Of a stretch of 32,000 nucleotides of DNA, positions 2,962 through 28,773 are shown piece by piece (the first letter of the stretch is position 1; the number at the start of each line of letters is the position of its first letter). Where the stretch lies: contig NZ_CP019384.1 of NCBI RefSeq assembly GCF_004102945.1, forward strand, positions 1,890,001-1,922,000, read 5' to 3'. A program made the position numbers and the translations under genes. Origin of the DNA: Candidatus Velamenicoccus archaeovorus (lineage in GTDB: Bacteria > Omnitrophota > Gorgyraeia > Velamenicoccales > Velamenicoccaceae). Under the pieces are notes generated by a model. The model searched no databases. It was not told the origin of the DNA and saw only the letters and a list, made by a program, of their open reading frames with translations.

Positions 2962-3717
2962 CTATTTATTGGATAATTTTTTTGCAATATTTTTGATGCT
3001 GTTATCCGGATGCTTAAGGAGCTTTTCTTTATCGTAGGCGATAAAATCGGGGTGGAGGGATATGCGGTACTGCTTTGAGCCGTTGTTCTCTATAAACTTC
3101 TGGCCGTCTTTATCCAGTAGGCTTCCCTGCAAAGCCGTCCTGAGATTACTGTAAATCTGAAATTTCTCGACATCGGCAATTATGCTGTCCGAGCCCAAGC
3201 TATGCCGGTGAACCCAGCCCTCTTTTGTTTTTTTTAATTCCAGCGCAAGGCGCAAGAACAGCTTAAACACCGAGTCGCCAAGCTTTATCTTGTGGTTATT
3301 CACTTCGATTTCGTTGCTCCGCCTCATGGGAATGGTGCCGGGTATATAGACCTTATCGTAGCATTTGTATTCAAAATCCTTATAATCCTTATTTTGCTTC
3401 TCTGTCAGCTCCCTAATGACAAGGTCCATGCCTATATCCGGCTTCAGCAGCCCAGATATAATCTCTCCGAGCAGCCTACAGATTTGAGTATCAAAGGTTT
3501 TATGGACAAGGTTCGTCTTCTTTAAGCGCTTTTTAAGGATACCAGCTTCATTGCTTGATACAGGCGTAAAAACAACAAGGATGCTATTATTTTTGAAGAT
3601 GTATTTTAAGGTAGACAACTTAAGCAGTTTTCCATTGCCGACATTAAGGATAAAAACCAACCCCATACGCTTTCCGCTACGAGTTTGATTTGCTATATAA
3701 AAATACCCTTTTCGCAT
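2962..3717 (-). CDS. Uncharacterised protein: about 130-aa alternating beta/alpha N-domain plus OmpR/PhoB-like winged-helix C-domain; partner of the TIR-like gene
   Basis: The C-terminal pattern IKLGDSVFKLFLRLALELKKTKEGWVHRHSL...IYSNLRTALQGSL...ENNGSKQYRISL follows the Trans_reg_C winged-helix layout. The N-domain has no motif I can name. The gene starts 24 nt downstream of the TIR-like gene. Confidence 0.45.
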   Translation of the reverse strand: MRKGYFYIANQTRSGKRMGLVFILNVGNGKLLKLSTLKYIFKNNSILVVFTPVSSNEAGILKKRLKKTNLVHKTFDTQICRLLGEIISGLLKPDIGMDLVIRELTEKQNKDYKDFEYKCYDKVYIPGTIPMRRSNEIEVNNHKIKLGDSVFKLFLRLALELKKTKEGWVHRHSLGSDSIIADVEKFQIYSNLRTALQGSLLDKDGQKFIENNGSKQYRISLHPDFIAYDKEKLLKHPDNSIKNIAKKLSNK

Positions 3718-3741
3718 TCTTGCCCTTTATTACGCGCCTAT

Positions 3742-4203
3742 CTAACTTAATTCTTCTATCCATTTTTCCAAAGCCTCGGGGTCCCAAGCCAAGCGTTGTG
3801 TCGACCTGCATTCCAAGGCCTTAGGAGCTGTTGCTTTTTCGCAGCCTTCAAGAAACATACCGCGAATATTCATCCACGCTTTACCAGACAAAAGCGCGTC
3901 TTTCATCTTATAAAAATTGTTGACTTCCCATTCCACCCAGGCATTCTTATAAGTCCCATCTCCGATTAAAACAACTAATTTGGCACACTGCTCAAATTTT
4001 TTAATAATCTCTTCTCGTATTGCTCTTGAACGACCGTCATTTAGCTGGCACTGTATCAATTTTTCGCTCCCGTCAGCCGATATTTCTTTAAAGCAACAAT
4101 CGTGAGCCTCAAACACATGTTTCGATTTACCTTTAAGAAAATTAAAGGCTTCGACTTGCTTCTGATCAGTCTGGTCAAAACTAACAAATACGTTTATTGC
4201 CAT
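3742..4203 (-). CDS. TIR-like domain protein (DUF1863 / Thoeris ThsB-like)
   Basis: INVFVSFDQTD parallels the FFSFHYxD opening of ThsB. LVVLIGDGTYKNAWVEWEV parallels ThsB CVLIGSQTFNRRWVRYEI. The preferred start is the ATG at 4203, which has GGAGCGGAGG upstream; the track ORF extends to 4266. Confidence 0.65.
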   Translation of the reverse strand: MAINVFVSFDQTDQKQVEAFNFLKGKSKHVFEAHDCCFKEISADGSEKLIQCQLNDGRSRAIREEIIKKFEQCAKLVVLIGDGTYKNAWVEWEVNNFYKMKDALLSGKAWMNIRGMFLEGCEKATAPKALECRSTQRLAWDPEALEKWIEELS

Positions 4204-7509: not shown

Positions 7510-8181
7510 TTATGCGCTAATTTCCGCAATGTTGACAGTATGCGCAGCAATATCACCTACGCTCTGAATAACAAATAATAAAATAGATTCGCCTCTTTCC
7601 GCTGTTTCTGATTTTTTATTTGTTTCCATTAAATCATCCTGCATACGGCTGCATATCTTTCTTAGCTCCAGGCTTGCTAAAATAGTCTTCTTAGCTAACC
7701 CTGCGTCTTGTTTTAAAAAAGAAATGACCGAATCCCAGACAATATTTTGAAAAATTTTAGCAAATTGAGAAATATTGATTTTATACCTTTCGGGGATATC
7801 TGTATTTAAACTTAGTAGGCTTTCCGCAATACCAGCGGTTAAGTCCCCAATTTGTTTTAATTCAATATTAACGCTTATGCTTGAAGAGATGAATGTTAAG
7901 ACGCTGCCCTCGGGCTGATACTGTTTAATGATATTAGTAAGATATTCCCCGGAGGCGACGCAAAGAGCTCCTATTTTTTTGTTATTGTCTATTATCTCTT
8001 GTATCTTTTGGGCATCAAAGCGCATCAGGACGCTGGATGTTTTGCTGATAGCCTCCTGCGTTAAGCGGCAGCTTTTAAGCAAATCATCATTTAATTTCTT
8101 AAGATCTCTTTCAATGTCCATTATTGAAATATCCCTCATATCCATCCAATGCTTTTGCAATAACCAAATTAAAATATTCAT
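7510..8181 (-). CDS. PhoU-domain protein
   Basis: Two helical repeats end in PhoU-like motifs: LKQIGDLTAGIAESL and IQSVGDIAAHTVNIAE (compare ERIGDHATNIAE). Confidence 0.6.
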   Translation of the reverse strand: MNILIWLLQKHWMDMRDISIMDIERDLKKLNDDLLKSCRLTQEAISKTSSVLMRFDAQKIQEIIDNNKKIGALCVASGEYLTNIIKQYQPEGSVLTFISSSISVNIELKQIGDLTAGIAESLLSLNTDIPERYKINISQFAKIFQNIVWDSVISFLKQDAGLAKKTILASLELRKICSRMQDDLMETNKKSETAERGESILLFVIQSVGDIAAHTVNIAEISA

Positions 8182-8369
8182 GCCTCATTACTTTTTGATC
8201 CCCGCACTGACTTGATAATAATAGGCTTCATTTCTAATTGATAGAATGGGCAATCCATAAATTTCCCCACACAATACTGCTTTTTGCGTTTGATACTTGG
8301 ACGGAATAAGCCGTCTCCGTAACATCCGCAATAACCAATCGGCCTTGCAGCAACAAAATAAGGGCACAT
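8178..8369 (-). CDS. 'MCPY' Cys-rich mini-protein, paralogue A
   Basis: MCPYFVAARPIGYCGCYGDGLFRPSIKRKKQYCVGKFMDCPFYQ aligns without gaps to paralogues B and C. Its stop overlaps the start of the PhoU-like gene. Confidence 0.6.
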   Translation of the reverse strand: MCPYFVAARPIGYCGCYGDGLFRPSIKRKKQYCVGKFMDCPFYQLEMKPIIIKSVRGSKSNEA

Positions 8370-8382
8370 GATTCATTTCCTC

Positions 8383-8919
8383 TTATATTGCAGGGCTAAG
8401 GCGCGCTGCCGTCCTTACATCCCCTATGGCATAAAATGCGTTAGGGTCGAATTTCTTTATAATATCTAATGTCCGGTCCAATAACTTGCGCCGCACAATT
8501 ATAAAAATAATCTTTACAGGGCCGGATGTCCCCTGTGCGTCGATTGTGGTTGCGCCGTAACCATTTGCGCGGAAATACGTTAATAAGCCAGCCGGATCCT
8601 TGTCTGTTATAAATTGAACCGCTAAATTTCCTATAGCTATTCTTTTTTCTATGGTGATGCCGACAAAAGTCCCCATGCTGAATCCGGCCGCAAAAGCAAT
8701 ATAATTTATGGGGTTATTTAAATTCTGCATTATTTGGGTGACGCCTACAAGCCAAATCAGCATTTCAAAAAACCCTATAATTGCGGCAAGCGCCCTTATC
8801 CCCCGGGTAACAAAAATAATCCTCATTGCCGCCATGCTTACATCCGCTGCGCGGGCCAGAAAAATCAAAAGGGGGATAGCTATTTGAACAAAAATGTTTT
8901 GCGGTATATAAAACTGCAT
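8383..8919 (-). CDS. UPF0316 / DUF2179 family membrane protein
   Basis: Three N-terminal transmembrane helices plus a C-terminal soluble domain (GYGATTIDAQGTSGPVKIIFIIV), typical of UPF0316. Confidence 0.7.
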   Translation of the reverse strand: MQFYIPQNIFVQIAIPLLIFLARAADVSMAAMRIIFVTRGIRALAAIIGFFEMLIWLVGVTQIMQNLNNPINYIAFAAGFSMGTFVGITIEKRIAIGNLAVQFITDKDPAGLLTYFRANGYGATTIDAQGTSGPVKIIFIIVRRKLLDRTLDIIKKFDPNAFYAIGDVRTAARLSPAI

Positions 8920-15960: not shown

Positions 15961-15993
15961 AAACCCGCCGGTTAAATTAACCGGAGGGTTTTT
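15961..15993 (-). terminator. Bidirectional intrinsic terminator closing the phage late operon
   Basis: AAACCCGCCGGTTAA-A-TTAACCGGAGGGTTT palindrome with one mismatch. It is flanked by an A-run on the left and a T-run on the right, giving U-tracts on both strands. It lies about 55 nt after the stop at 16048. Confidence 0.7.
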
Positions 15994-16047: not shown

Positions 16048-16380
16048 TTAGAAATCTACCCTTATACCGGCCTTAGCGCCTACACCTTTGCGGTCGTCAG
16101 ATTCAGCAAAACCATACCCCTCTACAAAAGGACTAACTTCGATCCCGGATTTCTTTTCCTCTTTCTTCTGATCTACCGTCACCTGCGCTCCCGGCTGAGC
16201 GATGATATGCGTGATCTGTTTCGTGGTCTGCGTAGGCATAAAGAATGCCCGATATATTGTCAGGCCCGCAAAGCCGACAAGCGCAATACCGGTCGCATAA
16301 CGCAGTGTCTTGACCCAAGGCAAAAACTGAAAGAAGCTCCCGGCGAATTTTAATAAACTAAACTTTTCGCTTTCCGACAT
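16048..16380 (-). CDS. Phage membrane protein (one transmembrane helix; C-terminus ends ...GIRVDF)
   Basis: 110-aa ORF with hydrophobic segment ATGIALVGFAGLTIYRAFF. Last gene before the terminator. Confidence 0.45.
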   Translation of the reverse strand: MSESEKFSLLKFAGSFFQFLPWVKTLRYATGIALVGFAGLTIYRAFFMPTQTTKQITHIIAQPGAQVTVDQKKEEKKSGIEVSPFVEGYGFAESDDRKGVGAKAGIRVDF

Positions 16381-16468
16381 TCTGCACCTTGCCTTTCAGC
16401 CAGAGATATAAAAACATCCCTAACCCTCCGACTATATTCCCTAAAGTAAAAGCTATAAACACCTTCAT
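16358..16468 (-). CDS. Candidate 36-aa single-transmembrane peptide (holin-like size)
   Basis: MKVFIAFTLGNIVGGLGMFLYLWLKGKVQNVGKRKV. GAGGAGGTGG Shine-Dalgarno sequence 5 nt upstream and an ATGA overlap with the upstream stop. Below the ORF-track cutoff. Confidence 0.35.
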   Translation of the reverse strand: MKVFIAFTLGNIVGGLGMFLYLWLKGKVQNVGKRKV

Positions 16469-16671
16469 TTTTCCACCTCCTCTTTTTTCGGTTTAACCTC
16501 AGCCCTTTCCAATATGCCTATAACAAGATTCATATCTTTTATAAGGCCTTGCTTAATCAGTTCGTTCATTTTTAATTTATAGAGCAGGCTCTTGTGATCC
16601 CGGATAACCAAGGCAAGCCGCCGATACTCATGCAGATCAAATTCAAGCCTTACTTTACTGATTTCTTCCAT
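16465..16671 (-). CDS. Phage hypothetical protein
   Basis: 68-aa ORF in operon register. No motif. Confidence 0.4.
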   Translation of the reverse strand: MEEISKVRLEFDLHEYRRLALVIRDHKSLLYKLKMNELIKQGLIKDMNLVIGILERAEVKPKKEEVEK

Positions 16672-16939
16672 CTCGGCTTCTTACCTTTAAATCGTTTCTT
16701 AAATCGTCGATTGCCTTCAAAATTCGGTCGTTTTCTTTTTCAAAGAATTTGCAGTGCAGATCAAACTCCGCCTTTGAAACAAACTGGCTGCGCGGCATAT
16801 GTATCTGGTCATTCGCTAGGTGCTGAAAGAGCTTCTCGTCAATGCGGCTCACCTGCGCCATAATCGTGCCGAGCATAAAAATGGCGATTGTTACTAAGAC
16901 CGGCGTAATATATTTTGTCCAGTTCCCGCTATTCTGCAT
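16655..16939 (-). CDS. Phage membrane-anchored coiled-coil protein
   Basis: The preferred start MQNSGNWTKY at 16939 avoids overlap with the upstream gene. N-terminal transmembrane helix ITPVLVTIAIFMLGTIMAQV, then a helical region. Confidence 0.45.
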   Translation of the reverse strand: MQNSGNWTKYITPVLVTIAIFMLGTIMAQVSRIDEKLFQHLANDQIHMPRSQFVSKAEFDLHCKFFEKENDRILKAIDDLRNDLKVRSRDGRNQ

Positions 16940-16943
16940 AAGA

Positions 16944-17126
16944 CTACACCACCATCTTCGCAAGATCGTCATCAATCAAAGCAATATTTTCATCTATCTT
17001 CTGCCTCTGCTTCAAAAACATATCTTTTGCGGTTTTAAGGTTTCCCTTTGAGTACTCCTGTTTTTCGCCGTTAGGATAGGTAACGATTTTCTTTCCATTC
17101 TTATATTCCACTGTGGCTTTTGCCAT
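16944..17126 (-). CDS. Phage hypothetical protein
   Basis: 60-aa ORF with AAAGGAGG upstream. Confidence 0.4.
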   Translation of the reverse strand: MAKATVEYKNGKKIVTYPNGEKQEYSKGNLKTAKDMFLKQRQKIDENIALIDDDLAKMVV

Positions 17127-17708: not shown

Positions 17709-17999
17709 CTATGCTTCGTAAGTTGCTGTAATTTTTCCTGACTCGCTCCCCGTCTTGATCACCCTGAAATCTTTTATGTGATAAATAGAGGGCAGTTCTA
17801 CAATATCCCCGTCTTCTAAAAGGGCGCCGGATGACGGTGTAGGATTCTGCCCGTTAACGAAATACCTCATCTGACCGCCTTCCGCATGAATAAGCGCAAA
17901 AGAAGCAGGCACACCGATGCCCGGATCATAAATTGACGGCGTCAAACTCCTGGCAACATCATCAACAATGATCTCCTCGTGATTAATAACCTTTCCCAT
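17709..17999 (-). CDS. Phage hypothetical protein, 96 aa, 2 nt after the second radical SAM gene
   Basis: ORF in tight operon register. No diagnostic motif. Confidence 0.45.
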   Translation of the reverse strand: MGKVINHEEIIVDDVARSLTPSIYDPGIGVPASFALIHAEGGQMRYFVNGQNPTPSSGALLEDGDIVELPSIYHIKDFRVIKTGSESGKITATYEA

Positions 18000-18001
18000 A
18001 G

Positions 18002-19354
18002 CTAAGTTCCTCCTTTAATTTTTACCGCCGGACCGCTTTCAAATACTGTCTTTGTGGGCGGCGGTATCTTTTGTTGAACATCATCCCAATCTCTTAAGCA
18101 AAATTTGACATTCCTATTTTCAGAGTAAAACCTCTCTAAATCCGCTGCTTTCATCCTTTCATGCGCGCAAGGATAAAAGGCCGGATTAAGGTCTTCTAAA
18201 TCTATGTGCTTATACTTTTCGTAGTCAGGAGTGCCCGGGATCGGCGTATATGGCAGAGTTACTGCCTCTGCTCCATAGCTTTTAATCAGGTCAATAGTGT
18301 GTTTAATGTCTTCCGTGGTTTGGTTTGGCGCGCCAATGATTAGAAAAGAACGAAGCCTCTGGAAATGCCTCTTTGCGATATTCATTGCCCGTTCCCAATC
18401 GGCAACAAAACAATTTCTTCTCCATTCTTTAATGATAATATCGCTGGCGCTCTCAATCGGGATATTGACCGAACGAAACCCGGCATTAACCATCTTCTCT
18501 GCAATCTCATCAGTTAATAAGCGCGCCTCTACGCCGCCGTAGGAATAAAGCTCGATGTTTAAACCTTCTTGGATAACCTTATCGAGAATAATTTTAAAGT
18601 GATTTTCGTATCCGTAGAGGATATTGGCGTCGAGAAAGATAAACTTCTTTATTCCCATTGACGTATAGTATTTAAGTTCACTCACCACTTCATCCGGACT
18701 GGTATTCACTTTTGTGCAGCCTTCCACAATGTGAACGGCGCAATACGAGCAATGGTTAGGACAGCCCACCGAGGTCCCAAGGAATATCCTCTCAGGAATG
18801 TTATCTCCGAATAAATCCGTATCTATCTTGATAAAATTATCGTTTACAGTCTTTTCTTCTAAGGTCATTATTTCATCGGCCCCTGATGCCACAGCATGTT
18901 CCGGACAAAGAATAGCGTATAGGCCGCCGACCTTTACCGGAACCTTCGGCATTGTCCTTTTACACTCGGCTACGATCTCATAAACTGCCCGCCAAAGAAA
19001 AGTAAAGGTATTGCCTACAAAGATCTTGTCAGGCTGAAACTCCTCCAGTTTTTTTGTCAGCTCTTGGATCGGCAAGCCCAGCCTGTGAAACTCCCTGCAG
19101 AGTTTTTCATTCTCAAAGTTGCCGCATTTCTTATAACCGATGAATTGCGATACCGGCATGCCCTTGAAATACATTGCGTCAGGCTTGTTCTCCATAAACT
19201 TCCTCGGCCGGTAAAGAGGATACATGTTAAAAAGCTCAACTGCATGGCCTTCCCTGCGCAATTTTGTCGCAACCTTGTAAATACCCACCGGCGAATTCCG
19301 ATACATCATCGTTATAGTGGTATATTCATATGGAACGATGCATAAATACTTCAT
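18002..19354 (-). CDS. Radical SAM enzyme with an N-terminal B12-binding-like domain (class B architecture)
   Basis: CPNHCSYC (CX3CX2C) at about residue 200. It is preceded by a Rossmann-like region (PVGIYKVATKLRREGHAVELFNM) like the cobalamin-binding domain of class B radical SAM enzymes. Confidence 0.8.
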   Translation of the reverse strand: MKYLCIVPYEYTTITMMYRNSPVGIYKVATKLRREGHAVELFNMYPLYRPRKFMENKPDAMYFKGMPVSQFIGYKKCGNFENEKLCREFHRLGLPIQELTKKLEEFQPDKIFVGNTFTFLWRAVYEIVAECKRTMPKVPVKVGGLYAILCPEHAVASGADEIMTLEEKTVNDNFIKIDTDLFGDNIPERIFLGTSVGCPNHCSYCAVHIVEGCTKVNTSPDEVVSELKYYTSMGIKKFIFLDANILYGYENHFKIILDKVIQEGLNIELYSYGGVEARLLTDEIAEKMVNAGFRSVNIPIESASDIIIKEWRRNCFVADWERAMNIAKRHFQRLRSFLIIGAPNQTTEDIKHTIDLIKSYGAEAVTLPYTPIPGTPDYEKYKHIDLEDLNPAFYPCAHERMKAADLERFYSENRNVKFCLRDWDDVQQKIPPPTKTVFESGPAVKIKGGT

Positions 19355-19357
19355 GGC

Positions 19358-20644
19358 TTAGTCCTTAGGCTTCGCGGTAAGCAAAGACAGCCCCTTCTTT
19401 ACATCCTGCAACTCTTTCACCAGGCGGATCATACAACGGGCCATTACGTCTAACTTGTCCTCTACAAGCTCCGCAGGCTCATCTTTGTTGACCTTATATA
19501 TAACGCCTTTATCTTTTAGGTCTGCCATTTCGCCCTCTTTAAGTAATAATTTACCTTCCACAAGCAGCCTCCTTATTATTGGCCGTAAGGCACTGGATAT
19601 CCTTTCATTCATTTCGCAGTAGCCGTTGTCAGGAACCGCCGCGGGATCCTGATTTAAATACATGTTTGTCGCAAAACACCTGTTGCAGGAAAACACCTTG
19701 CAGTTAAGGCATTTAACCGCCTTCTGGCGCATTTCTTTGATTTTCTTAAAAGCCTTGCCGTTTTCGTCTATCCCTTTCCAGACATCGCCCAGGCAAAAAT
19801 CATATTTTTTAGAGTAGGCAACGAATCTGTGGCAAGGATAGATCTTGCCCTCAGTTGAAATGCCTATTAAGTATTCCCCGGCCCTGCAGCCTTTCTGCCG
19901 GTTAAATGAATTGTCTACTATCCTCTCCAAAGAATGGTGCAGATAGTTAAAATACTGGTTATGGCCTCTCTGGTAATACAGCTCGATGCATTTTTTAAGC
20001 TCATCTATAAATGTGCTGATTACCTCGTCATTCCAGTCGCCTTCTACAATGGGCGTGAGGTTTGTCACAGGCGTGCCAAAAGAAAGCAAAGCCTCAAAAT
20101 CTTTTGAGAGTGATTTTATGTTCTCAGGAGTGACGGTCATGCGCACGCCCACACTTTTAAAAATCTCCCGGATCTTTTTAATGTTCTCTGAAATGACCTT
20201 ATAGCTTCCCTCATCATTGGCAAATACCCTGTTGGCATTGTGAGTTTCCTCGCAGCCGTCCAAAGACACCTGGAAGTGCCAGTTGAAATTGCCATATGGG
20301 CGGATACTTTTAAAATAGTCTGTCATCTCATCTGTCAATACCGTCCCGTTGGACAAGATATGAATACCGGCCCTAAAGTTCAGCTTATCGCATACATCCC
20401 TAAGGTAATCGATACCGGCCCTGACCGTAGGAAAATTAAGAAGCGGCTCTCCGCCAAAGAATGTAAAGGTCAGACTTTCAAAAGGCCGGGCAAACATCTC
20501 CTTTTCATAATGGCCTACCAGCCAGTCTATGCCCGCAACCATAGTCTCGGGCGTCATGTCGCCTGCGCGGTTTTCTTCATAGCAGTATTTACAGCGCAGG
20601 TTGCATTTATTGGTCACAAAAATATAGGCAGACTTTGGCTTCAT
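19358..20644 (-). CDS. Radical SAM enzyme with a C-terminal SPASM/twitch-type auxiliary Cys cluster domain (anSME-like; no visible RRE)
   Basis: CNLRCKYC at residues 13-20 and FFGGEPLL. C-terminal GCRAGEYLIGISTEGKIYPCHRF...CLNCKVFSCNRC...GYCE. The start lies 1 nt after the stop of the Cys-rich fibre protein gene. Confidence 0.85.
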   Translation of the reverse strand: MKPKSAYIFVTNKCNLRCKYCYEENRAGDMTPETMVAGIDWLVGHYEKEMFARPFESLTFTFFGGEPLLNFPTVRAGIDYLRDVCDKLNFRAGIHILSNGTVLTDEMTDYFKSIRPYGNFNWHFQVSLDGCEETHNANRVFANDEGSYKVISENIKKIREIFKSVGVRMTVTPENIKSLSKDFEALLSFGTPVTNLTPIVEGDWNDEVISTFIDELKKCIELYYQRGHNQYFNYLHHSLERIVDNSFNRQKGCRAGEYLIGISTEGKIYPCHRFVAYSKKYDFCLGDVWKGIDENGKAFKKIKEMRQKAVKCLNCKVFSCNRCFATNMYLNQDPAAVPDNGYCEMNERISSALRPIIRRLLVEGKLLLKEGEMADLKDKGVIYKVNKDEPAELVEDKLDVMARCMIRLVKELQDVKKGLSLLTAKPKD

Positions 20645-20645
20645 T

Positions 20646-21221
20646 TTAATCTCCGCAATCGCATTCGCTGCAGCACTGCTCCTGGCAGGTGCAGGTACAA
20701 GTACACGTACAAGTGCAGGTACAAGTGCAAGTGCACTCGCATTCGCAGCAGACTATATGCGTATGCCCCGCTAAATTCTCTAAATGAGTCCTTAACTGTT
20801 CGTGAGCCGATGCCTTGATCCAGGTAATAAGCGCAACAACCGGATCATCCTCAAAAGCAAAGCCGGGCGCAAAAGCGTCAGAATTAACGCTGTATGCAGG
20901 CACATAGTGATAATGGCCGTTAAACGCCTTGATAAAATTTATGATCTCGTTTGTATGCGAGGCCTTTGGCGGCGTCTCATCTACAATAATCTGCGCGTTT
21001 GACTCGGCCCATGCCACCGATACATCCGGCAATTCTGCGTTTGAATTATTGCCGTTGAATACATGATAATGGCCGTCCAAGGCCTCTAAACAAGCCCTCA
21101 GTTCAACAATATGCGTCTTCTTAATAGGCGTAACATCCTGAACTAATGGATCGTCTGTCCATGCTGCAGGTATTGGATTTCCGCCTGAACTTTTTGGAGG
21201 CCCGCTTGTATAATTTCCCAT
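20646..21221 (-). CDS. Fibre-like protein with three HxH-ending repeats and a 16-Cys C-terminal tail including (Cys-Thr)x8; candidate radical SAM substrate
   Basis: Repeats end LDGHYH, FNGHYH and LAGHTH. The C-terminus reads IVCCECECTCTCTCTCTCTCTCTCQEQCCSECDCGD. AAGGA Shine-Dalgarno sequence. The gene is flanked by a fibre gene upstream and maturase-type genes downstream. Confidence 0.8.
   Translation of the reverse strand: MGNYTSGPPKSSGGNPIPAAWTDDPLVQDVTPIKKTHIVELRACLEALDGHYHVFNGNNSNAELPDVSVAWAESNAQIIVDETPPKASHTNEIINFIKAFNGHYHYVPAYSVNSDAFAPGFAFEDDPVVALITWIKASAHEQLRTHLENLAGHTHIVCCECECTCTCTCTCTCTCTCTCQEQCCSECDCGD
20685..20735 (-). repeat. Imperfect hexanucleotide coding repeat (TGY-ACN)x8 plus TGC
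   Basis: Minus strand reads TGC ACT TGC ACT TGT ACC TGC ACT TGT ACG TGT ACT TGT ACC TGC ACC TGC. Synonymous codons vary between units. Confidence 0.9.
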
Positions 21222-21230
21222 GTTTTTCCT

Positions 21231-21803
21231 TTATGCGTATACCGCTCTGGGCGGCGCATTCTCAAACCGGGAATTTGCGCTTATATATCTTAGACCCTGG
21301 CCGTCTTGAACAGAGCTAAGATGCACTGGAATTGTTTCATAAAACCCTTTCACGCCGCTTGCATTCGTTCCGTAACTCTTGTTATTCCCCGGCGAAGCTG
21401 CCCCGCCTTCCAGCTTTTCAGTGCCGACACCGCCGTCCTTTAGCTGCAGCTTGTCTCCTGCTGAAATCTGAAATACCATAGCATCTATCAGGCCGTCTAA
21501 ATAATCCGGCGCTGTATCGCTGACATCAGCTTTCAGCTTATTCGGCGAATTGGCCTCCGGCAGGACCCCGGCAGCAGAAGGAATGCTTGCCAGTCCGGTT
21601 AAAGCTGCGCCGCTCACTTTATTCGGTGTAACTATCTGCGCAAGCTTTGTGTCTTCAATCCCCGCTCCGGGCGCCACTTTCGCATTGGTAATTAAGAGAT
21701 TCGGGTCTGTGCCTAACTCCAAGGCTTCCCAGTTTGCCCTGCAGGCAGCCGGGAAGTTAATCAAAAGCATGTCATTTTCCGGCTTTGTTTTGTCCCAAGC
21801 CAT
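21231..21803 (-). CDS. Tail fibre protein (proximal part)
   Basis: The N-terminus MAWDKTKPENDMLL...CRANWEALE resembles conserved fibre N-termini in my recollection. Gly/Ala-rich extended sequence. GGGAGGT Shine-Dalgarno sequence. Positioned after the J-like gene. Confidence 0.55.
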   Translation of the reverse strand: MAWDKTKPENDMLLINFPAACRANWEALELGTDPNLLITNAKVAPGAGIEDTKLAQIVTPNKVSGAALTGLASIPSAAGVLPEANSPNKLKADVSDTAPDYLDGLIDAMVFQISAGDKLQLKDGGVGTEKLEGGAASPGNNKSYGTNASGVKGFYETIPVHLSSVQDGQGLRYISANSRFENAPPRAVYA

Positions 21804-22050
21804 CGGATACCTCCCTATTCTTATAGCTTTCAGCTACTTTATTCATGTCGTAAAGATCCGCGCCGTGCTCGCGCAAAGTCTCGATCCAGCAGACATCATG
21901 CATAAATAAAGCCTGTGCGTAGTTATACGCCTGCTCAATGCAGGTAAACACCAAAGGCCGCTTTTTGGGCGTGCGCAAAATAATGCTTCCTCTTATCAGC
22001 ACATAGGCCATATCAGCGGGGATCTCCTGTTTGCATCTTGAGCAAATCAT
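21772..22050 (-). CDS. Phage hypothetical protein with an N-terminal CxxC
   Basis: 92-aa ORF with an ATGA overlap to the upstream gene. Its 3' end overlaps the fibre gene start by 32 nt. Confidence 0.4.
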   Translation of the reverse strand: MICSRCKQEIPADMAYVLIRGSIILRTPKKRPLVFTCIEQAYNYAQALFMHDVCWIETLREHGADLYDMNKVAESYKNREVSDGLGQNKAGK

Positions 22051-25200: not shown

Positions 25201-25885
25201 TGTGCAGATCCTCGAAGTTACTGACAAGGCTCTGATAGTTTGCGCCAAAACGCTTTGAAACCGTTACTCCGCTGAAGTTAGCGATGGGATTATTATTAAT
25301 CTCTATTGCTTCAATCGATTCGATTTCCCCTTCACAAAGAGCAAGCAGAACATTCAAATAGTGGCTGTCGCCGTCTTCCCAAAGGAATTGATTGATGATG
25401 TTGCCGCCGATCCTGTGCTCGCCGTAGACAACCGCCACCGGCACCCCTACCTCCTGGATAGTCTGCACACCGTCCCAGCCGTAAGTAGGCGATCCTTCAT
25501 CTATGCCGGTTGCCGAACCTAAATTGAAATCCGGCATTTTCGGCTGGTTCATATGCTGATAAATGGCATAGCCCATTGATAGCACAAAGAACGTAAATAA
25601 GAATGGATGCGCTACGGCCACGGCCCATACTGCGGAAACTATAGCGGAGATAATCGCCACCACCGGCGCCTTTACTTCCGGAATAATGGTAATCTCGTCT
25701 TCATTATCAAGATATGCGGACAGATTCTCAATGCGCTTGCCGCTGACAATAACGCGCTTATTCTCATAATCAAAGCCGGACTCAATCAAGACTTCCTGAA
25801 GCGTCTTGTGGCGGGAGTAAGAAACCTCCTTAACTTGAGCCTCTTCTAGCTTAAACGGATTTTCTATATTCCTTATGGTCAGCAT
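22265..25885 (-). CDS. Tail tip / host-specificity protein, lambda gpJ-like, with an N-terminal gpI-like module
   Basis: YPNTALLGLQL and NPVWCLRDFIISNRYGLG parallel lambda J YPNTALVGVQV and NMAWCLWDMLTHPRYGMG. The N-terminus has a hydrophobic stretch plus VPVAVVYGEHRIGGNII, as in lambda gpI. The ORF is open to 25975; the ATG at 25885 minimises overlap with the K-like gene. Confidence 0.85.
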   Translation of the reverse strand: MLTIRNIENPFKLEEAQVKEVSYSRHKTLQEVLIESGFDYENKRVIVSGKRIENLSAYLDNEDEITIIPEVKAPVVAIISAIVSAVWAVAVAHPFLFTFFVLSMGYAIYQHMNQPKMPDFNLGSATGIDEGSPTYGWDGVQTIQEVGVPVAVVYGEHRIGGNIINQFLWEDGDSHYLNVLLALCEGEIESIEAIEINNNPIANFSGVTVSKRFGANYQSLVSNFEDLHNLYPVNANLVKDSPYIYTTVDLDVEGFEIHLRLNNGLYQQSSGSGDIQSWSVTYKVEYKLHSEGTYIDLGETTISEKSRSTVRRVFRKAGLAPGQYDIRITRTSDDSSLSPLRQGDLTLFQIDELKTDDLSYPNTALLGLQLLATDQLNGGTPNVTAVVKGKKVLVPDIRNSGAQVSWEDYYWDGSNYRLLSDDTLLEWDGITYVQKYSANPVWCLRDFIISNRYGLGEFILTTHLDNASLLEMSQYCEEKVADGKGGFEKRFRLDVVIDSNHKALDILIQLSAVFNAMPVYSAGGIAFKIDKQTLPTQLFGMGNIVKDSFVQSWKTIKEVPNVIEVQFTDKEKNYRQETIAYIDEEDLANGAPMRKSQVRLFTTGASYAIRAARYALKVAKYINRSIVFKAGIDAVACQAGDIISLSHDVPQWGFSGRVKDGSTTVLIKLDRPMTIEDGKSYKIQIRFSDDSIDERLITSPAGTYTEISCQAFTNTPQGFDVFAIGETNKVKKDFRVVAIQREGKNEVQIQALEYNEAVYDDSDIILPQNNYSSLSGEIPTVTNLTLTESLVKKTDGTIENAIDVWFDRPVFVDHYVKSFARAKIYLSDDGGLSWGARGETTGSYFRIIGDIVDRHTYKVRVTSLTDMDEESSLTAAPEASIAVVGKSAPPSDVSTFLVNQNRDQLYFGWSEISDVDVWGYEIRRGVDWESGEVITFQQGTHYLTTGLKKGIDQKFWIKAIDTSGNYSENPTQSVLTVGEIPFRNIVAEYQEHPLWPGVKTNLEVSFETLVISDGFLSGEYDTPVRDIGYVAAAFIEIEAIISLSTGRRFNSDPDARFNDSLSYRFTGQETQNVASFKIRLSEDNINWSEWADYQPGDYYCRYFQIKMVLTRENLGDYVTCSTLQYLADLPDVDDFGSDAVSDANEGKEVFFTKTYHEEPNVHIEITSGGGVYTQFVDKSTTSFKVKLFNAQGVAQTGAFDWHSHGV

Positions 25886-26358
25886 ATCCTGTCTTTTAAC
25901 CTGTAAAATCCCTCTATCTTCGTCTGCCACGAGGGGTCGTTTATCCTTGAAATAATCACTCCCGGTCTTGCGCAATGGATAAACCTTCCATTGCTCAAAA
26001 TTATGCCTGCGTGATTGGCAATTTTCCTTGAGTTAACAAACAATACTCCGTCGAGCATCTCAGGCGTCTTAACGCTCACCCAGTCATGAAAGTAATGCTC
26101 TTTAAAATAATCCTTACCCTGCGCTCCCCAGATCTTGCTGTATTCCAAATCCTCAATATCAAACAGCCTCACCCCTAGATCAGCGTAGACAAGCTTTAAG
26201 AATCCCCAGCAGTCAAGCCCTTCTAAGGACCGGCCGCGGTGCCGGTACGGCAGCCCAAGATATTTGCCGATAATAAATTGCTCTACATCACGTAGATGCG
26301 CCTTGCCGGTACCGACGGAAACGCCCCGAATCTCTGATAATTGTTCAGTTGTTTGCAT
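25879..26358 (-). CDS. NlpC/P60 tail-tip peptidase, lambda gpK-like (no MPN/JAB domain)
   Basis: Catalytic Cys in GLDCWGF, His in ANHAGII and His in FIHC. The start is uncertain: ATGs at 26358 and 26379, and the track start at 26406. All three overlap the L-like gene. Confidence 0.75.
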   Translation of the reverse strand: MQTTEQLSEIRGVSVGTGKAHLRDVEQFIIGKYLGLPYRHRGRSLEGLDCWGFLKLVYADLGVRLFDIEDLEYSKIWGAQGKDYFKEHYFHDWVSVKTPEMLDGVLFVNSRKIANHAGIILSNGRFIHCARPGVIISRINDPSWQTKIEGFYRLKDRIC

Positions 26359-26894
26359 CTCTGTTTTGTCTTGTTGCATGTAAACTCTGCTCCCGAATAA
26401 CCGCACTCCGCGGCTTTAAACTTCCAGCTACAGTAATTGCGCGAATACCGCCTTGCCGGAAGGTCTACGCCGAGAACGTCAAACTTTCCTGTCAGGGTAA
26501 GCTCCACATTGTTTTGGTCTGCCGTATAGCTGTCGATGTAAAATATGTCGTCCATAAAGGCGTCCGGATCAGATAATTGATCCAGCCAGACCATGCGTAT
26601 CGTGACTTTTTTGCCACGGAAATCGAACTGCTCCAAGTAAAGCTGGATCAGCCTTGAGACATTGGCGAGGCGCACCTTAACCTGGTCAATCTGGCCTTGA
26701 TTGTTCTCGCCTACAAACTCATGAGTTATAGGAAACCGCGAATAAGTAATGCCGTTATAAATTACATCCTCGTCAAAGCTCGCAAGATAGAGATCGTTTG
26801 TGCCGTCATATTTTTCAAGCGTATATAAAAATATCGGCGCATTCTCGCGCTTGGCTTTCTCCTGCTTGAATGTAGCGTCTATTTCTCGCGGCAT
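26283..26894 (-). CDS. Minor tail protein, lambda gpL-like, with a C-terminal 4-Cys cluster
   Basis: CSWKFKAAECGYSGAEFTCNKTKQRC...RFGAFPSVP. gpL-family proteins are known to bind an Fe-S cluster through such C-terminal cysteines. Synteny between the M-like and K-like genes supports the call. Confidence 0.7.
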   Translation of the reverse strand: MPREIDATFKQEKAKRENAPIFLYTLEKYDGTNDLYLASFDEDVIYNGITYSRFPITHEFVGENNQGQIDQVKVRLANVSRLIQLYLEQFDFRGKKVTIRMVWLDQLSDPDAFMDDIFYIDSYTADQNNVELTLTGKFDVLGVDLPARRYSRNYCSWKFKAAECGYSGAEFTCNKTKQRCKQLNNYQRFGAFPSVPARRIYVM

Positions 26895-27232
26895 TATTTC
26901 ACCTCAACAAACTCGCATTCAAAGTCATACACTCCGTATGCCTTGCGGCTAAACTGAAAGCTGTCCTCAACAAAACGCACGGTGTATTCAAACGAATCAT
27001 TAGGATTCGTCCAGGTGAATGCCATGAATGCCCCAAACCTGCTCTTAAAAAAATCTAAAACTTCTGCCATCTCCGCCTGGGTCCTGTTATTAAATCTGAG
27101 TGTCCATTTTGCTAAAGGATTCGCCCATTTACGCCGTCTCTGCTCTGCTCCGTTTTCAAACTCAGACACAAGCGTTTTGTATTCCACCGCCTCATCAATG
27201 AGAAAATCCGGAAGATGAGTAAAATCGCTCAT
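26894..27232 (-). CDS. Minor tail protein, lambda gpM-like
   Basis: FENGAEQRR...WTLRF...EVLDFFKSRFGAFMAFTWTNP parallels gpM FGDGYSQR...LESFLEEHGGWKSFLWTPP. It directly follows the tape measure gene. Confidence 0.7.
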   Translation of the reverse strand: MSDFTHLPDFLIDEAVEYKTLVSEFENGAEQRRRKWANPLAKWTLRFNNRTQAEMAEVLDFFKSRFGAFMAFTWTNPNDSFEYTVRFVEDSFQFSRKAYGVYDFECEFVEVK

Positions 27233-28773
27233 GTATAACTCCTGATTACCGACCGAATCTTGCCGTTGTTATAAATGTCATCCGCAATGGCGTTTGATAA
27301 CATCTTGCGGTTTCGCCATACGTCCTGCGCGTCCCACGCCTGGATAACTTGATTCACATTTATGGTTATGCCTGCTTTGGCAGGCTTTCCTTCATTTAGA
27401 GATCTTAAGTTGTCCGGCCCGCCCAAGGCAGCCATACCGCGCCTGGATAAAACTCCTTCTCCGGTCTGGGCAATAACCGGCACCTCATCAGGCGCAAGCC
27501 CTGCGTGCGCTCGGACAGGTAAGATCTGGCCGCCTGAGTGATAAATCATTCCGCCCTGATGGAAAAACGGGATCATACCGGGAAAAATTGAACCGATAGT
27601 CTTAACAAGAATCATCCTGGCCAAGACCTCAGCAAGGACCTCCAGCATCATATTGCCTAATTCAGCGAAATAATCTCTTACATCATCAATCTGTCCTTTG
27701 AACGCATCGCTAAAAAAGTGCTTAAATACGCTTCCCAATGACCGGGCAACGCCTTCCCCCATAGACTGAATCGCGTCAAACTTCTGCGCCACTTCCTCAA
27801 TCTTTACATCCTTGCCTAAATTCTTAAGGGCATCAATAAAACCATTTATCGCATTCTTTGCCTTGTCGTATCCTTTAACGAGGCTGCCCTCGCCGGTCAC
27901 CAGGACGTTTGAAATCTTATTGCCTACCCTGTCCATCTCCGCATCAGAGGCTTTGATCAGGCCCTGCAGATTATCGCGGAAGCGTTTGATGTGCTCTGAT
28001 GCCTCCCTGTATGGCTCGCCGAGTTTTCCGGGAAGCTTGCCCAAAACATCGTAAAATTTCTCTAGCCCAAGGGCCAGCTTGTCAAAACCCACCAAGAGAT
28101 ATTTGATAAGTTTGACAAATCCGATGTAGACCATCTCCGCGCCGATCTCAACTGCATTCAGGACCGGCACCGCTGCATCTCTGAATTTGAGAAATACAAC
28201 AATAAGAATTGATACGGCAACAGCAATCCCGGCAATCCAAGGATGCGCCAGGGCAAATAAGGCCAGCTTGCCGACCAAGCCAATAATAAGCCCGCTCAAA
28301 CGTATCAGCCGCCCTATCAAAGCAACTACAACTCCGCTAAGCGTCATAAAAATGCCAGTCACTGCAATAGTCTGAACGATCATTTGCTGTGTTGCCGGTG
28401 TCAGGCTATTCCACATATTAAGCAGATTGCCAAAGACATTGGCCAGCTTATGCGCAACCGGCACTAATGCCTCGGCAATACTTACCCGCAGGCCGATAAA
28501 GGCGTTATCAAGGCGTTTAAGCTCGTTTGAAACGGAGAGGGAATATTTCTCTGCGGATTTAAAGGCAAGAGCAAGGGGCCCGGTCAATGCGCCGCCCATA
28601 AAAACAAGGTTCTGGCCGACCTGCGCTATCTCTCTGCCTACCTGACGAAGCGTGCCACCAAGCTGCTTGCAGGAATTGGCGAACTTCTGCAGATTGCCTT
28701 CTATCCCCTGCAGGCGCTTTGAGACCTCGTCTTTTAATTTCATGATGATTTCGAGTTCTCTGTTAGTAGGCAT
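27229..28773 (-). CDS. Tail tape measure protein
   Basis: 514 aa. Helical N-terminal part and a central cluster of hydrophobic helices. Positioned immediately after the G/GT chaperone pair and before the M-like gene. Confidence 0.8.
   Translation of the reverse strand: MPTNRELEIIMKLKDEVSKRLQGIEGNLQKFANSCKQLGGTLRQVGREIAQVGQNLVFMGGALTGPLALAFKSAEKYSLSVSNELKRLDNAFIGLRVSIAEALVPVAHKLANVFGNLLNMWNSLTPATQQMIVQTIAVTGIFMTLSGVVVALIGRLIRLSGLIIGLVGKLALFALAHPWIAGIAVAVSILIVVFLKFRDAAVPVLNAVEIGAEMVYIGFVKLIKYLLVGFDKLALGLEKFYDVLGKLPGKLGEPYREASEHIKRFRDNLQGLIKASDAEMDRVGNKISNVLVTGEGSLVKGYDKAKNAINGFIDALKNLGKDVKIEEVAQKFDAIQSMGEGVARSLGSVFKHFFSDAFKGQIDDVRDYFAELGNMMLEVLAEVLARMILVKTIGSIFPGMIPFFHQGGMIYHSGGQILPVRAHAGLAPDEVPVIAQTGEGVLSRRGMAALGGPDNLRSLNEGKPAKAGITINVNQVIQAWDAQDVWRNRKMLSNAIADDIYNNGKIRSVIRSYT

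Follow-up and report, generated by a model that had tools for sequence, protein, structure and literature searches.

The Cys-X repeat tail of a phage tail-module protein co-varies with the neighboring radical SAM enzymes

Radical S-adenosylmethionine (SAM) enzymes of the SPASM type are known as maturases of bacteriocin-like peptides, of cofactors and of one enzyme subunit, QhpC. Proteusins (polytheonamide-type) combine an NHLP leader with a radical SAM epimerase and B12 radical SAM C-methyltransferases. Where the chemistry of SPASM maturases is established, PapB links the Cys sulfur to the C-beta of Asp, CteB to the C-gamma of Thr, and QhpD to an Asp or Glu methylene inside a protein subunit (PMC8172795). 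The action of a SPASM maturase on a Cys-rich core is already known, with QhpC as the protein precedent. This study concerns three adjacent genes in a 32,000-nucleotide stretch of contig NZ_CP019384.1 (positions 1,890,001 to 1,922,000; hereafter the window), which encode a 191-aa protein with a Cys-rich C-terminal tail, a radical SAM/SPASM enzyme and a second radical SAM enzyme within a phage tail operon. A preliminary description of the window had read these genes as a substrate with a C-terminal Cys core followed by its maturases. All gene features that it listed were recovered on the minus strand and every motif that it quoted is present, and its reading is borne out by conservation of the tail, by linkage without counterexample, by co-variation of tail and enzymes, and by the exchange of both as a cassette. 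New here are the viral tail context, a putative retained and folded leader without a recognition element, the C-X-C-X core, an obligate second enzyme, and the modular nature of the tail-plus-enzyme cassette. Positions are given in window coordinates throughout, and all prophage genes of interest lie on the minus strand.

The 191-aa protein comprises an N-terminal domain (N-domain, residues 1-157) and a 34-residue Cys-X tail (CCECECTCTCTCTCTCTCTCTCQEQCCSECDCGD) with 16 Cys, including (CT)x8. Its gene is separated from the SPASM gene by 1 nt, the SPASM gene from that of the second enzyme by 3 nt, and the latter from a 96-aa open reading frame (ORF) by 2 nt. A search of 5.8 billion proteins returned 48 homologs of 168-207 aa. 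The Cys-X tail is present in 48/48, with 10-17 Cys each (8 in one truncated entry), and begins two residues past a conserved His-x-His; it is also kept in 16/16 full-length representative clusters. The residue between successive Cys is strongly biased, with Thr (242), Glu (98), Gln (48), Asp (26) and Asn (7) accounting for 92% of 459 cases family-wide. In loci that share the window's enzymes, whose N-domains are 79-96% identical to that of the window, the only changes to the tail are one Gln-to-Thr substitution, the loss of two CT units, and the altered tail of a single locus, L010. In L010 (10001-10603) a Cys-to-Ser change is combined with a read-through extension (…CCSESDCGDKNETEINLYFCNK), reflecting either a sequencing error or a decaying copy.

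The possibility that the tail is merely the product of a slippage-prone simple DNA repeat was rejected, given that the repeat is imperfect (a 6/12-nt unit with 80-86% matches), the codons vary synonymously and the peptide is retained. Most of the 34 tail codons are synonymously polymorphic among 14 distinct genes encoding an identical tail peptide, a count of synonymous against non-synonymous change that is biased by the choice of genes with identical tails; the unbiased sample is the tail list of the loci given above. The sulfatase-type C/S-x-P/A-x-R motif is absent from the tail.

Loci were gathered with the family profile (15 viral, 3 genomic, and 42 metagenomic), and those of distant relatives were added, to a total of about 65. 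Every locus with a contig extending more than ~1.1 kb past the Cys-tail gene has a homolog of the SPASM enzyme and/or of the second, B12-type enzyme by tblastn, with no counterexample, and the 11 loci without a tblastn match are all on contigs that stop no more than 810 nt downstream of it. The tail and its linkage to radical SAM genes, on whose generality the preliminary description had staked its case, are thus both general features of the family. The arrangement varies, with two to five radical SAM genes per locus, or one to five where distant Cys-tailed relatives are concerned. Both enzyme genes are set apart from the candidate substrate gene by other genes in L014, where two more radical SAM genes join, and the SPASM gene lies ahead of the substrate gene in L015. 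The locus of relative P0025 contains five radical SAM genes, one of them split by an intein, and a second triple-repeat/Cys-rich protein. Distant Cys-tailed relatives that were found by the N-domain profile only are also flanked by radical SAM genes (three for P0198, five for P0179, and one for P0173).

Two further observations concern these distant loci. The 82-kb phage contig L024 encodes triple-repeat proteins with Cys-rich C-termini at 3136-3903 and 8001-8546, the first being followed by three radical SAM genes of its own and the second by two. The intein-split SPASM gene beside the Cys-tailed P0025 (L024, 8589-10880; L025, 3985-6309) carries an intein with a PF14890 match and a LAGLIDADG domain, and a free-standing LAGLIDADG gene lies nearby.

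Co-variation of tail and enzymes is the strongest evidence for a substrate-enzyme unit. A single N-domain cluster (60% identity) holds three tail classes, A, B, and B2, which pair only with SPASM clusters 0, 1, and 3 and with B12-type clusters 0, 1, and 4, with no discordant loci. Three loci (L041, L042, and L044) have N-domains 77-84% identical to that of the window (83% for L041) and a different tail end (...CHCDCTCTCTCRCEPEM); in L041 and L044, the contigs of which reach the enzymes, these are 31-35% identical to those of the window. Loci with an equally diverged N-domain but the window's tail end have enzymes that are 82-87% identical. Alignment of the window to L041 by blastn gives homology over 25983-20686 and 17909-17139 and none over 20685-17910, so that the recombination breakpoint falls inside the tail-coding region. 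The one-to-one pairing of classes and the break at the cassette indicate that the enzymes track the tail, not the N-domain. It is very probable that the three genes constitute an enzyme-substrate unit.

The N-domain is formed by three ~45-residue repeats, which are homologous as judged by hhalign between the repeat profiles (probability 98.8-99.4%, E 1e-17 to 1e-22). AlphaFold2 modeling with the family alignment yields a compact monomer (pLDDT 87, pTM 0.79) with one helix per repeat, followed by a disordered tail of low confidence. The presence of three homologous repeats in one chain points to a single-chain pseudo-threefold unit, and the compact domain predicted by AlphaFold2 speaks against a trimeric fiber shaft. 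The label "fiber-like" that the preliminary description gave to the 191-aa protein has no backing from family models, no match being found in Pfam, PHROG, NCBIfam or PADLOC. A PDB profile search with the protein returned nothing below E 0.04, and Foldseek with the AlphaFold2 model gave no match with E <3 in the PDB and none <0.08 in BFVD.

When searched against 1.8 billion representative proteins, the N-domain profile identified the 16 full-length clusters and >2,300 proteins with the same repeat (E below 1e-3). In this wider superfamily the repeat is ~35 residues long, with a consensus like sWTDPtItanSTkIrkvHIdELRsAi, and usually occurs three times, without HxH, at the very C-terminal end of long proteins that contain Ig/FN3-like or beta-propeller-like regions; the carriers are long secreted or fiber-like proteins (relatives P0174-P0306). 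The repeat of these distant relatives is without a Pfam model. Of the sequences available from the profile search, 34 carry a Cys-rich segment past the last repeat and 76 lack a Cys tail. Its occurrence at the C-terminal end of >2,300 proteins marks the N-domain as a widespread unannotated terminal module, and a very widespread triple-repeat C-terminal domain with a new predicted fold is a side result of this analysis. Each repeat of the 191-aa protein ends in an invariant HxH motif, and the three motifs probably meet to form a single metal site, in the manner of the HxH motifs of trimeric fibers. Such motifs are established metal ligands of phage fibers, and HxH pairs bind iron octahedrally in T4 gp37 (PMC11705849).

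The SPASM enzyme contains the motif CNLRCKYC at residues 14-21 and, further on, GCRAG...YPCHRF...CLNCKVFSCNRC...GYC. The profile checks suggested in the preliminary description gave a divided result: Radical_SAM (PF04055) is matched by both enzymes, with 53 bits against a cutoff of 29.5 for the SPASM enzyme, while the Pfam SPASM model (16.6 bits, cutoff 21.5) and, for the second enzyme, the B12-binding model PF02310 (24.1 bits, cutoff 32.1) remain below threshold. The assignment of a SPASM/twitch-type Cys cluster is upheld by conservation across the enzyme's own clade, where an alignment of 30 sequences shows seven SPASM Cys (C253, C271, C312, C315, C320, C323, and C343) to be either invariant or conserved to at least 90%. 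Among NCBIfam models PapB scores best (NF047865; 207.8 bits, cutoff 340), followed by the nif11-type, CXXX-repeat, QhpD, and SCIFF maturases (TIGR03974, 125.8 bits, cutoff 425), and the best PDB match is CteB (5wgg; E 1.4e-24, covering CteB residues 98-439). The parallels to SCIFF/CteB and QhpD drawn earlier are therefore to nearest families, and neither enzyme belongs to a family with a different established substrate encoded nearby.

The alignment to CteB begins past its leader-binding domain, and the position of the radical SAM motif, from residue 14, leaves no room for an N-terminal recognition element (RRE, PqqD-like) of the kind found for peptides made on the ribosome and modified after translation (RiPPs). 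An extension of ~85 aa follows the SPASM domain. The enzyme belongs to a dedicated clade of ~30 metagenomic proteins, beyond which identity falls to the PapB/QhpD level of ~30%. With a Cys-rich candidate core encoded 1 nt away, in a linkage that is conserved and co-varies with tail class, it is presumed to be a thioether-forming maturase akin to those of ranthipeptides, and by this analogy thioether chemistry in the tail is a little better than an even prospect.

The same substrate-enzyme unit might instead support a different chemistry: sactionine (Cys-to-C-alpha) formation, epimerization, anSME-like oxidation of Cys, S- or C-methylation only, or a metal or Fe-S array of Cys. All family scores lie under the equivalog cutoffs, and both anSME and SkfB also match the SPASM enzyme, but PapB (208 bits) and CteB (E 1e-24) score far above anSME (65 bits, E 1e-5) or SkfB. 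Anaerobic sulfatase-type chemistry in particular was rejected, the anSME match of 65.5 bits comparing with a cutoff of 349. L019, L020, and L024 encode additional small radical SAM enzymes, which suggests added reaction types, and the C-X-C-X register fits, to our knowledge, no known ranthipeptide motif. The bias of inter-Cys residues toward Thr, Glu, Gln, and Asp nevertheless matches the ranthipeptide acceptor types (PMC8172795). The HxH motifs and the Cys array look metal-oriented, and a metal-thiolate spine had been offered as an alternative in the preliminary description; a metal-thiolate tail alone, however, could do without dedicated enzymes and would show no co-variation with them, leaving their joint exchange unexplained. 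Taken together, a chemistry other than thioether formation is considered unlikely, if worth keeping in view.

The second enzyme matches PF04055 with 81.5 bits (E 1e-22; motif CPNHCSYC), and its relatives carry precomputed PF02310 matches. It is built of an N-terminal Rossmann-like (B12-binding-type) domain and a radical SAM core, and its AlphaFold2 model (pLDDT 88) resembles MgmA, TsrM, CysS, TokK, and OxsB in Foldseek searches and, equally well, MtaB/MiaB/RimO and AprD4. MgmA, which also ranks among the top fold matches, is the best PDB sequence match (9ccb, E 9e-10). No family model confirms the cobalamin binding implied by the B12-binding label of the preliminary description; the enzyme may bind cobalamin, but the label is fold-level and ambiguous. 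Only C198, C202, and C205 (CX3CX2C) are invariant in the alignment of this enzyme, the family of which numbers 29 proteins, and the invariance of only the radical SAM Cys indicates that it is not a methylthiotransferase. A MiaB/RimO-type function was rejected on the lack of an auxiliary-cluster Cys triad and on an NCBIfam match that is confined to core residues 189-387 (68 bits vs 251). Methylation, the most plausible role, is possible but rather doubtful.

One relative of the second enzyme, 35% identical, is fused to another radical SAM domain in a His-Xaa-Ser-like cluster of a cellular genome, which suggests a peptide-modifying lineage. This cluster (L026, 5595-14224; GCA_964640195.1) encodes an HxsD-domain protein, an 87-aa peptide ending HTHSHISHTSHGSHSSHGSHSSGGGGGGGGC, the fused relative, and four more radical SAM genes.

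At least five phage backbones are represented among the loci, which lie in tail-tip, fiber or baseplate modules. In L014 and L015 the genes on both sides belong to baseplate wedge subunits and "virion structural protein" families, Baseplate_J and PTL_trimer are present in L020, and in L022 the gene directly follows a fiber-like gene. Accessory or tip genes of the tfa or gp38 type usually sit directly after the fiber gene. From its genomic position the 191-aa protein is probably incorporated in the virion, and a single-chain pseudo-threefold domain with three HxH motifs would be expected of a monomer capping a trimer. No record in a collection of 50,697 phage records encodes a homolog of the 191-aa protein, and SPASM enzymes in it are only 25-30% identical. 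Such enzymes are encoded among hypothetical genes in Phage Phass-1 (L027; OQ749652.1, 68353-69546; code-15) and in human-gut phage contigs (MT835472-MT839674).

The same genes could also be phage-borne cargo (a moron) for a released RiPP, in which the N-domain would serve as a large leader, as in NHLP and Nif11, and the peptide would be cleaved off to act, once set free by lysis, as a toxin, signal or metal chelator. The order of precursor and maturase genes and the enzyme families follow classic RiPP logic, the nif11-type maturase is the second-best NCBIfam match, and the AlphaFold2 prediction shows a disordered tail that is separable from the N-domain. The tail-fiber region is also a common site for cargo; in at least five unrelated backbones, however, the cassette lies between structural genes and not at operon ends. 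Release would call for processing and export, but the examined loci (L014, L015, L019, L020, L023, and L024) show no protease, double-glycine site or exporter, and the gene lists of these loci and of the window contain no peptidase or exporter by Pfam annotation or as a candidate by eye; a host protease may perform the cleavage. The N-domain, moreover, has invariant HxH motifs of its own and is kin to a domain at the C-terminal end of long fiber- or surface-like proteins, which better fits an exposed structural module. On this evidence a released peptide is improbable.

Phages do carry radical SAM genes for other uses (e.g. PMC3322345), and there are weak matches to viperin-type defense models, but that the enzymes act on another tail protein, DNA, a host molecule or an anti-defense target, and adjoin the Cys tail by incidental linkage in a mobile fiber module, is highly improbable, given that enzyme clusters map one-to-one to tail classes within one N-domain cluster, that the recombination breakpoint falls inside the tail-coding region, that adjacency persists as gene order and backbone change, and that the defense matches are confined to the generic radical SAM core (46 vs 208 bits for PapB), on which ground a defense system was rejected.

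The observed gene anatomy, conservation, enzyme-tail co-variation and phage tail context can be accommodated by a model in which a tail-tip protein with a retained leader undergoes RiPP-like thioether stapling. The SPASM enzyme, perhaps via its C-terminal extension, would dock on the folded N-domain, which would act as a never-removed leader, and would install multiple intramolecular thioethers from Cys sulfur to side-chain carbon along the tail. The second enzyme would contribute another modification, with C-methylation the likeliest. The N-domain would be kept and would bind a metal. The product would be a stapled, redox- and protease-resistant peptide on a monomeric cap at the distal tail end, with a role in host recognition or envelope penetration. 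This model is marginally favored as a whole. Its fullest form, in which phages of anaerobes use two to five phage-encoded radical SAM enzymes to make a thioether-stapled and possibly methylated Cys-X peptide at the tail tip, kept on a single-chain, metal-binding, pseudo-trimeric cap, is put forward tentatively.

Several points weigh against the model. The presence of the 191-aa protein in virions is deduced from gene position only. The region after the J and fiber genes is a classic insertion site for morons, and position at a cargo-prone site is in itself weak evidence for a structural role. No cultured phage in the collection of 50,697 records has a homolog. The SPASM enzyme scores far below every NCBIfam equivalog cutoff, which makes its reaction type an extrapolation. 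The strict C-X-C-X register cannot accommodate the Cys-X3-Asp spacing of PapB; the ring pattern must then be new, with acceptors at odd offsets (i+1, i+3, i+5). The fold of the second enzyme fits the non-cobalamin MiaB and AprD4 as well as it does cobalamin enzymes. Some loci carry three to five radical SAM genes, and the chemistry may go beyond thioether formation and methylation. Finally, many loci are near-duplicates from overlapping collections, so that fewer independent observations stand behind the counts than these suggest.

Targeted full-text searches of the literature brought up no account of a phage tail protein matured by radical SAM enzymes. If the model is correct, a virion structural protein would for the first time be seen to undergo RiPP-type modification by radical SAM enzymes, RiPP recognition would gain a new mode in which the leader is retained and no RRE takes part, and the host-contact surface of phages would be diversified by a swappable tail-plus-enzymes cassette. 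Dedicated and widely conserved enzymes acting on a tail-module protein would bring to phage particles a class of post-translational chemistry new to them, and would show RiPP-type enzymology serving construction and not secreted products. For enzymology, the interest lies in maturases that recognize a folded domain in place of an RRE-bound leader and in a C-X-C-X substrate register for which we know of no characterized precedent; the natural swaps of tail and enzymes already map which enzyme suits which core. In ecological terms, the model suggests that phages infecting anaerobes such as Omnitrophota mature their virions by an oxygen-sensitive process, and that they may thereby have a new way of diversifying their host range.

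The surrounding genes of the window are listed in Table 1. The lambda-like genes that the preliminary description placed upstream are all accounted for, with three minor tail proteins in the M, L and K/I positions followed by J; a tape measure gene precedes them. The K/I-like ORF overlaps the L-like ORF by ~120 nt and the J-like ORF, which has a TTG start, by ~100 nt; probably the true starts lie further downstream, or the overlaps reflect lambda-like coupling. Directly upstream of the 191-aa gene, the gene for a 190-aa fiber-like protein ends 9 nt before it, and by eye this protein looks like the N-terminal part of the 715-aa fiber of L014. The 96-aa ORF and the DUF1566 lectin-like gene follow the enzymes as described earlier. 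The former has no match in Pfam, NCBIfam or PHROG searches and is a conserved partner in siphovirus-type loci; the latter is kept downstream of the cassette in relatives, and is predicted to encode what is probably a receptor-binding accessory protein.

A terminator-like hairpin, located between the last phage ORF and a host hemerythrin gene, closes the late operon and is likely a bidirectional terminator at the prophage border. To its left are bacterial-type genes (a restriction-modification pair, MgtE, PhoU, a two-component system, a Na/H exchanger, and hemerythrin), and GC content changes from 0.38-0.43 in the host-type part to 0.45-0.49 in the phage part. The host-type genes and the GC step indicate that the window contains one end of a prophage. 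The restriction-modification pair, at 121-2153 and ~14 kb away from the prophage end, consists of a TdeIII-type type II endonuclease (PF09520, E 8e-73) and an N6/N4 DNA methylase. Close relatives of the locus derive from metagenome-assembled genomes of Candidatus Omnitrophota, and the prophage is probably of Omnitrophota origin, with which the anaerobic host foreseen in the preliminary description is consistent.

Table 1. Features of the prophage part of the window, in window coordinates
Feature	Position	Strand	Basis or remark
Tape measure protein	27229-28773	-	Family match
Minor tail proteins at lambda M, L, K/I positions	26894-27232, 26283-26894, 25879-26406	-	Family match
J-like tip attachment / host specificity protein, 1236 aa	22265-25975	-	PF24801 E 2e-21; PF13550 E 5e-12
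Two small ORFs, 71 and 92 aa	22047-22262, 21772-22050	-	ORF list
Fiber-like protein, 190 aa	21231-21803	-	Weak phrog_36859 match; 80-94% identity in relatives
Cys-tailed protein, 191 aa	20646-21221	-	ORF list
Repeat 1, residues ~14-57, ends in invariant H51-x-H53	21051-21182	-	hhalign, alignment
Repeat 2, residues ~62-109, ends in invariant H103-x-H105	20895-21038	-	hhalign, alignment
Repeat 3, residues ~114-157, ends in invariant H153-x-H155	20751-20882	-	Tail begins two residues on
Cys-X repeat tail, residues 158-191	20649-20750	-	Presumed modification site
Radical SAM/SPASM enzyme, 428 aa	19358-20644	-	PF04055, motifs
Second radical SAM enzyme, 450 aa	18002-19354	-	PF04055, CPNHCSYC
Recombination cassette (distal ~13 tail codons, both radical SAM genes, 5' end of 96-aa ORF)	17910-20685	-	L041 blastn
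96-aa ORF	17709-17999	-	51-97% identity in L002-L017
Lcl_C/DUF1566 lectin-like protein, 187 aa	17140-17703	-	PF07603 E 1.2e-25
Four small ORFs	16048-17126	-	ORF list
Bidirectional terminator-like hairpin	15968-15984	none	Perfect 7-bp stem CCGGTTAAATTAACCGG, T-runs on both strands

Comparison with described systems sets the locus apart from each while retaining features of several. The locus resembles the His-Xaa-Ser system (HxsA-D) in that several radical SAM enzymes accompany a short-repeat peptide; however, the window lacks HXS repeats and HxsD, and the HxsB match is 98 bits against a cutoff of 370. The second enzyme shares its Rossmann-like domain and radical SAM core with the class B enzyme MgmA, the glutamine C-methylase of methyl-coenzyme M reductase, which acts on a whole protein, but it reaches only 56 bits (cutoff 360) and matches the MiaB/MtaB and AprD4 folds equally well. 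Proteusins, compared by description only, also have a large N-terminal domain ahead of a heavily modified C-terminal core and several radical SAM enzymes including the B12-domain type, as do the loci here with three to five such genes. In contrast, the window has neither a nitrile-hydratase-like leader nor a leader protease, its core is Cys-rich, and its SPASM enzyme is of the thioether type and not a PoyD-type epimerase.

Among phage proteins, the gp38 tip adhesins of T2 and S16 are likewise encoded by a small gene directly after the fiber gene, and a monomer would there cap a trimeric fiber, a symmetry mismatch that a pseudo-threefold chain would solve. No sequence or fold similarity to gp38 was detected for the 191-aa protein, and gp38 relies on polyglycine sandwiches where the 191-aa protein has a Cys tail that is presumably enzyme-modified. 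With the trimeric HxH fibers of T4 gp37 the protein shares only the His-x-His motif, here invariant and present three times, each after a repeat; in contrast to gp37 and gp12, the three motifs lie in one chain of a predicted compact domain with no fold or sequence match to solved fibers, and are not spread over three chains of a beta-helical shaft.

The closest parallels are the SPASM systems. PapB/PapA (freyrasin) and CteB/CteA (SCIFF/thermocellin) share with the window a SPASM enzyme with CX3CX2C and the seven-Cys auxiliary motif, next to a Cys-rich C-terminal core, and the window tail interleaves with its Cys the acceptor residues Thr, Asp and Glu of these systems (PMC8172795). They differ in that the window enzyme falls under the PapB cutoff of 340 and lacks an N-terminal RRE, in that the register is C-X-C-X instead of Cys-X3-Asp, and in that the tail is preceded by a folded domain of 157 residues where those systems have a short leader peptide; the window system is also phage-encoded, located in a tail module, and accompanied by an obligate second radical SAM enzyme, without protease or exporter. 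QhpD/QhpC differs in a score (133 bits) far below the cutoff of 453, in its qhp partners (dehydrogenase subunits, the QhpE protease, and QhpG), which have no counterpart here, and in an unrelated substrate outside any viral context. The proposed stapling of the Cys-X tail nevertheless resembles that of QhpC, in which several Cys-to-Asp/Glu thioethers are formed in a protein that stays in a larger assembly and lend it structural stability (PMC8172795).

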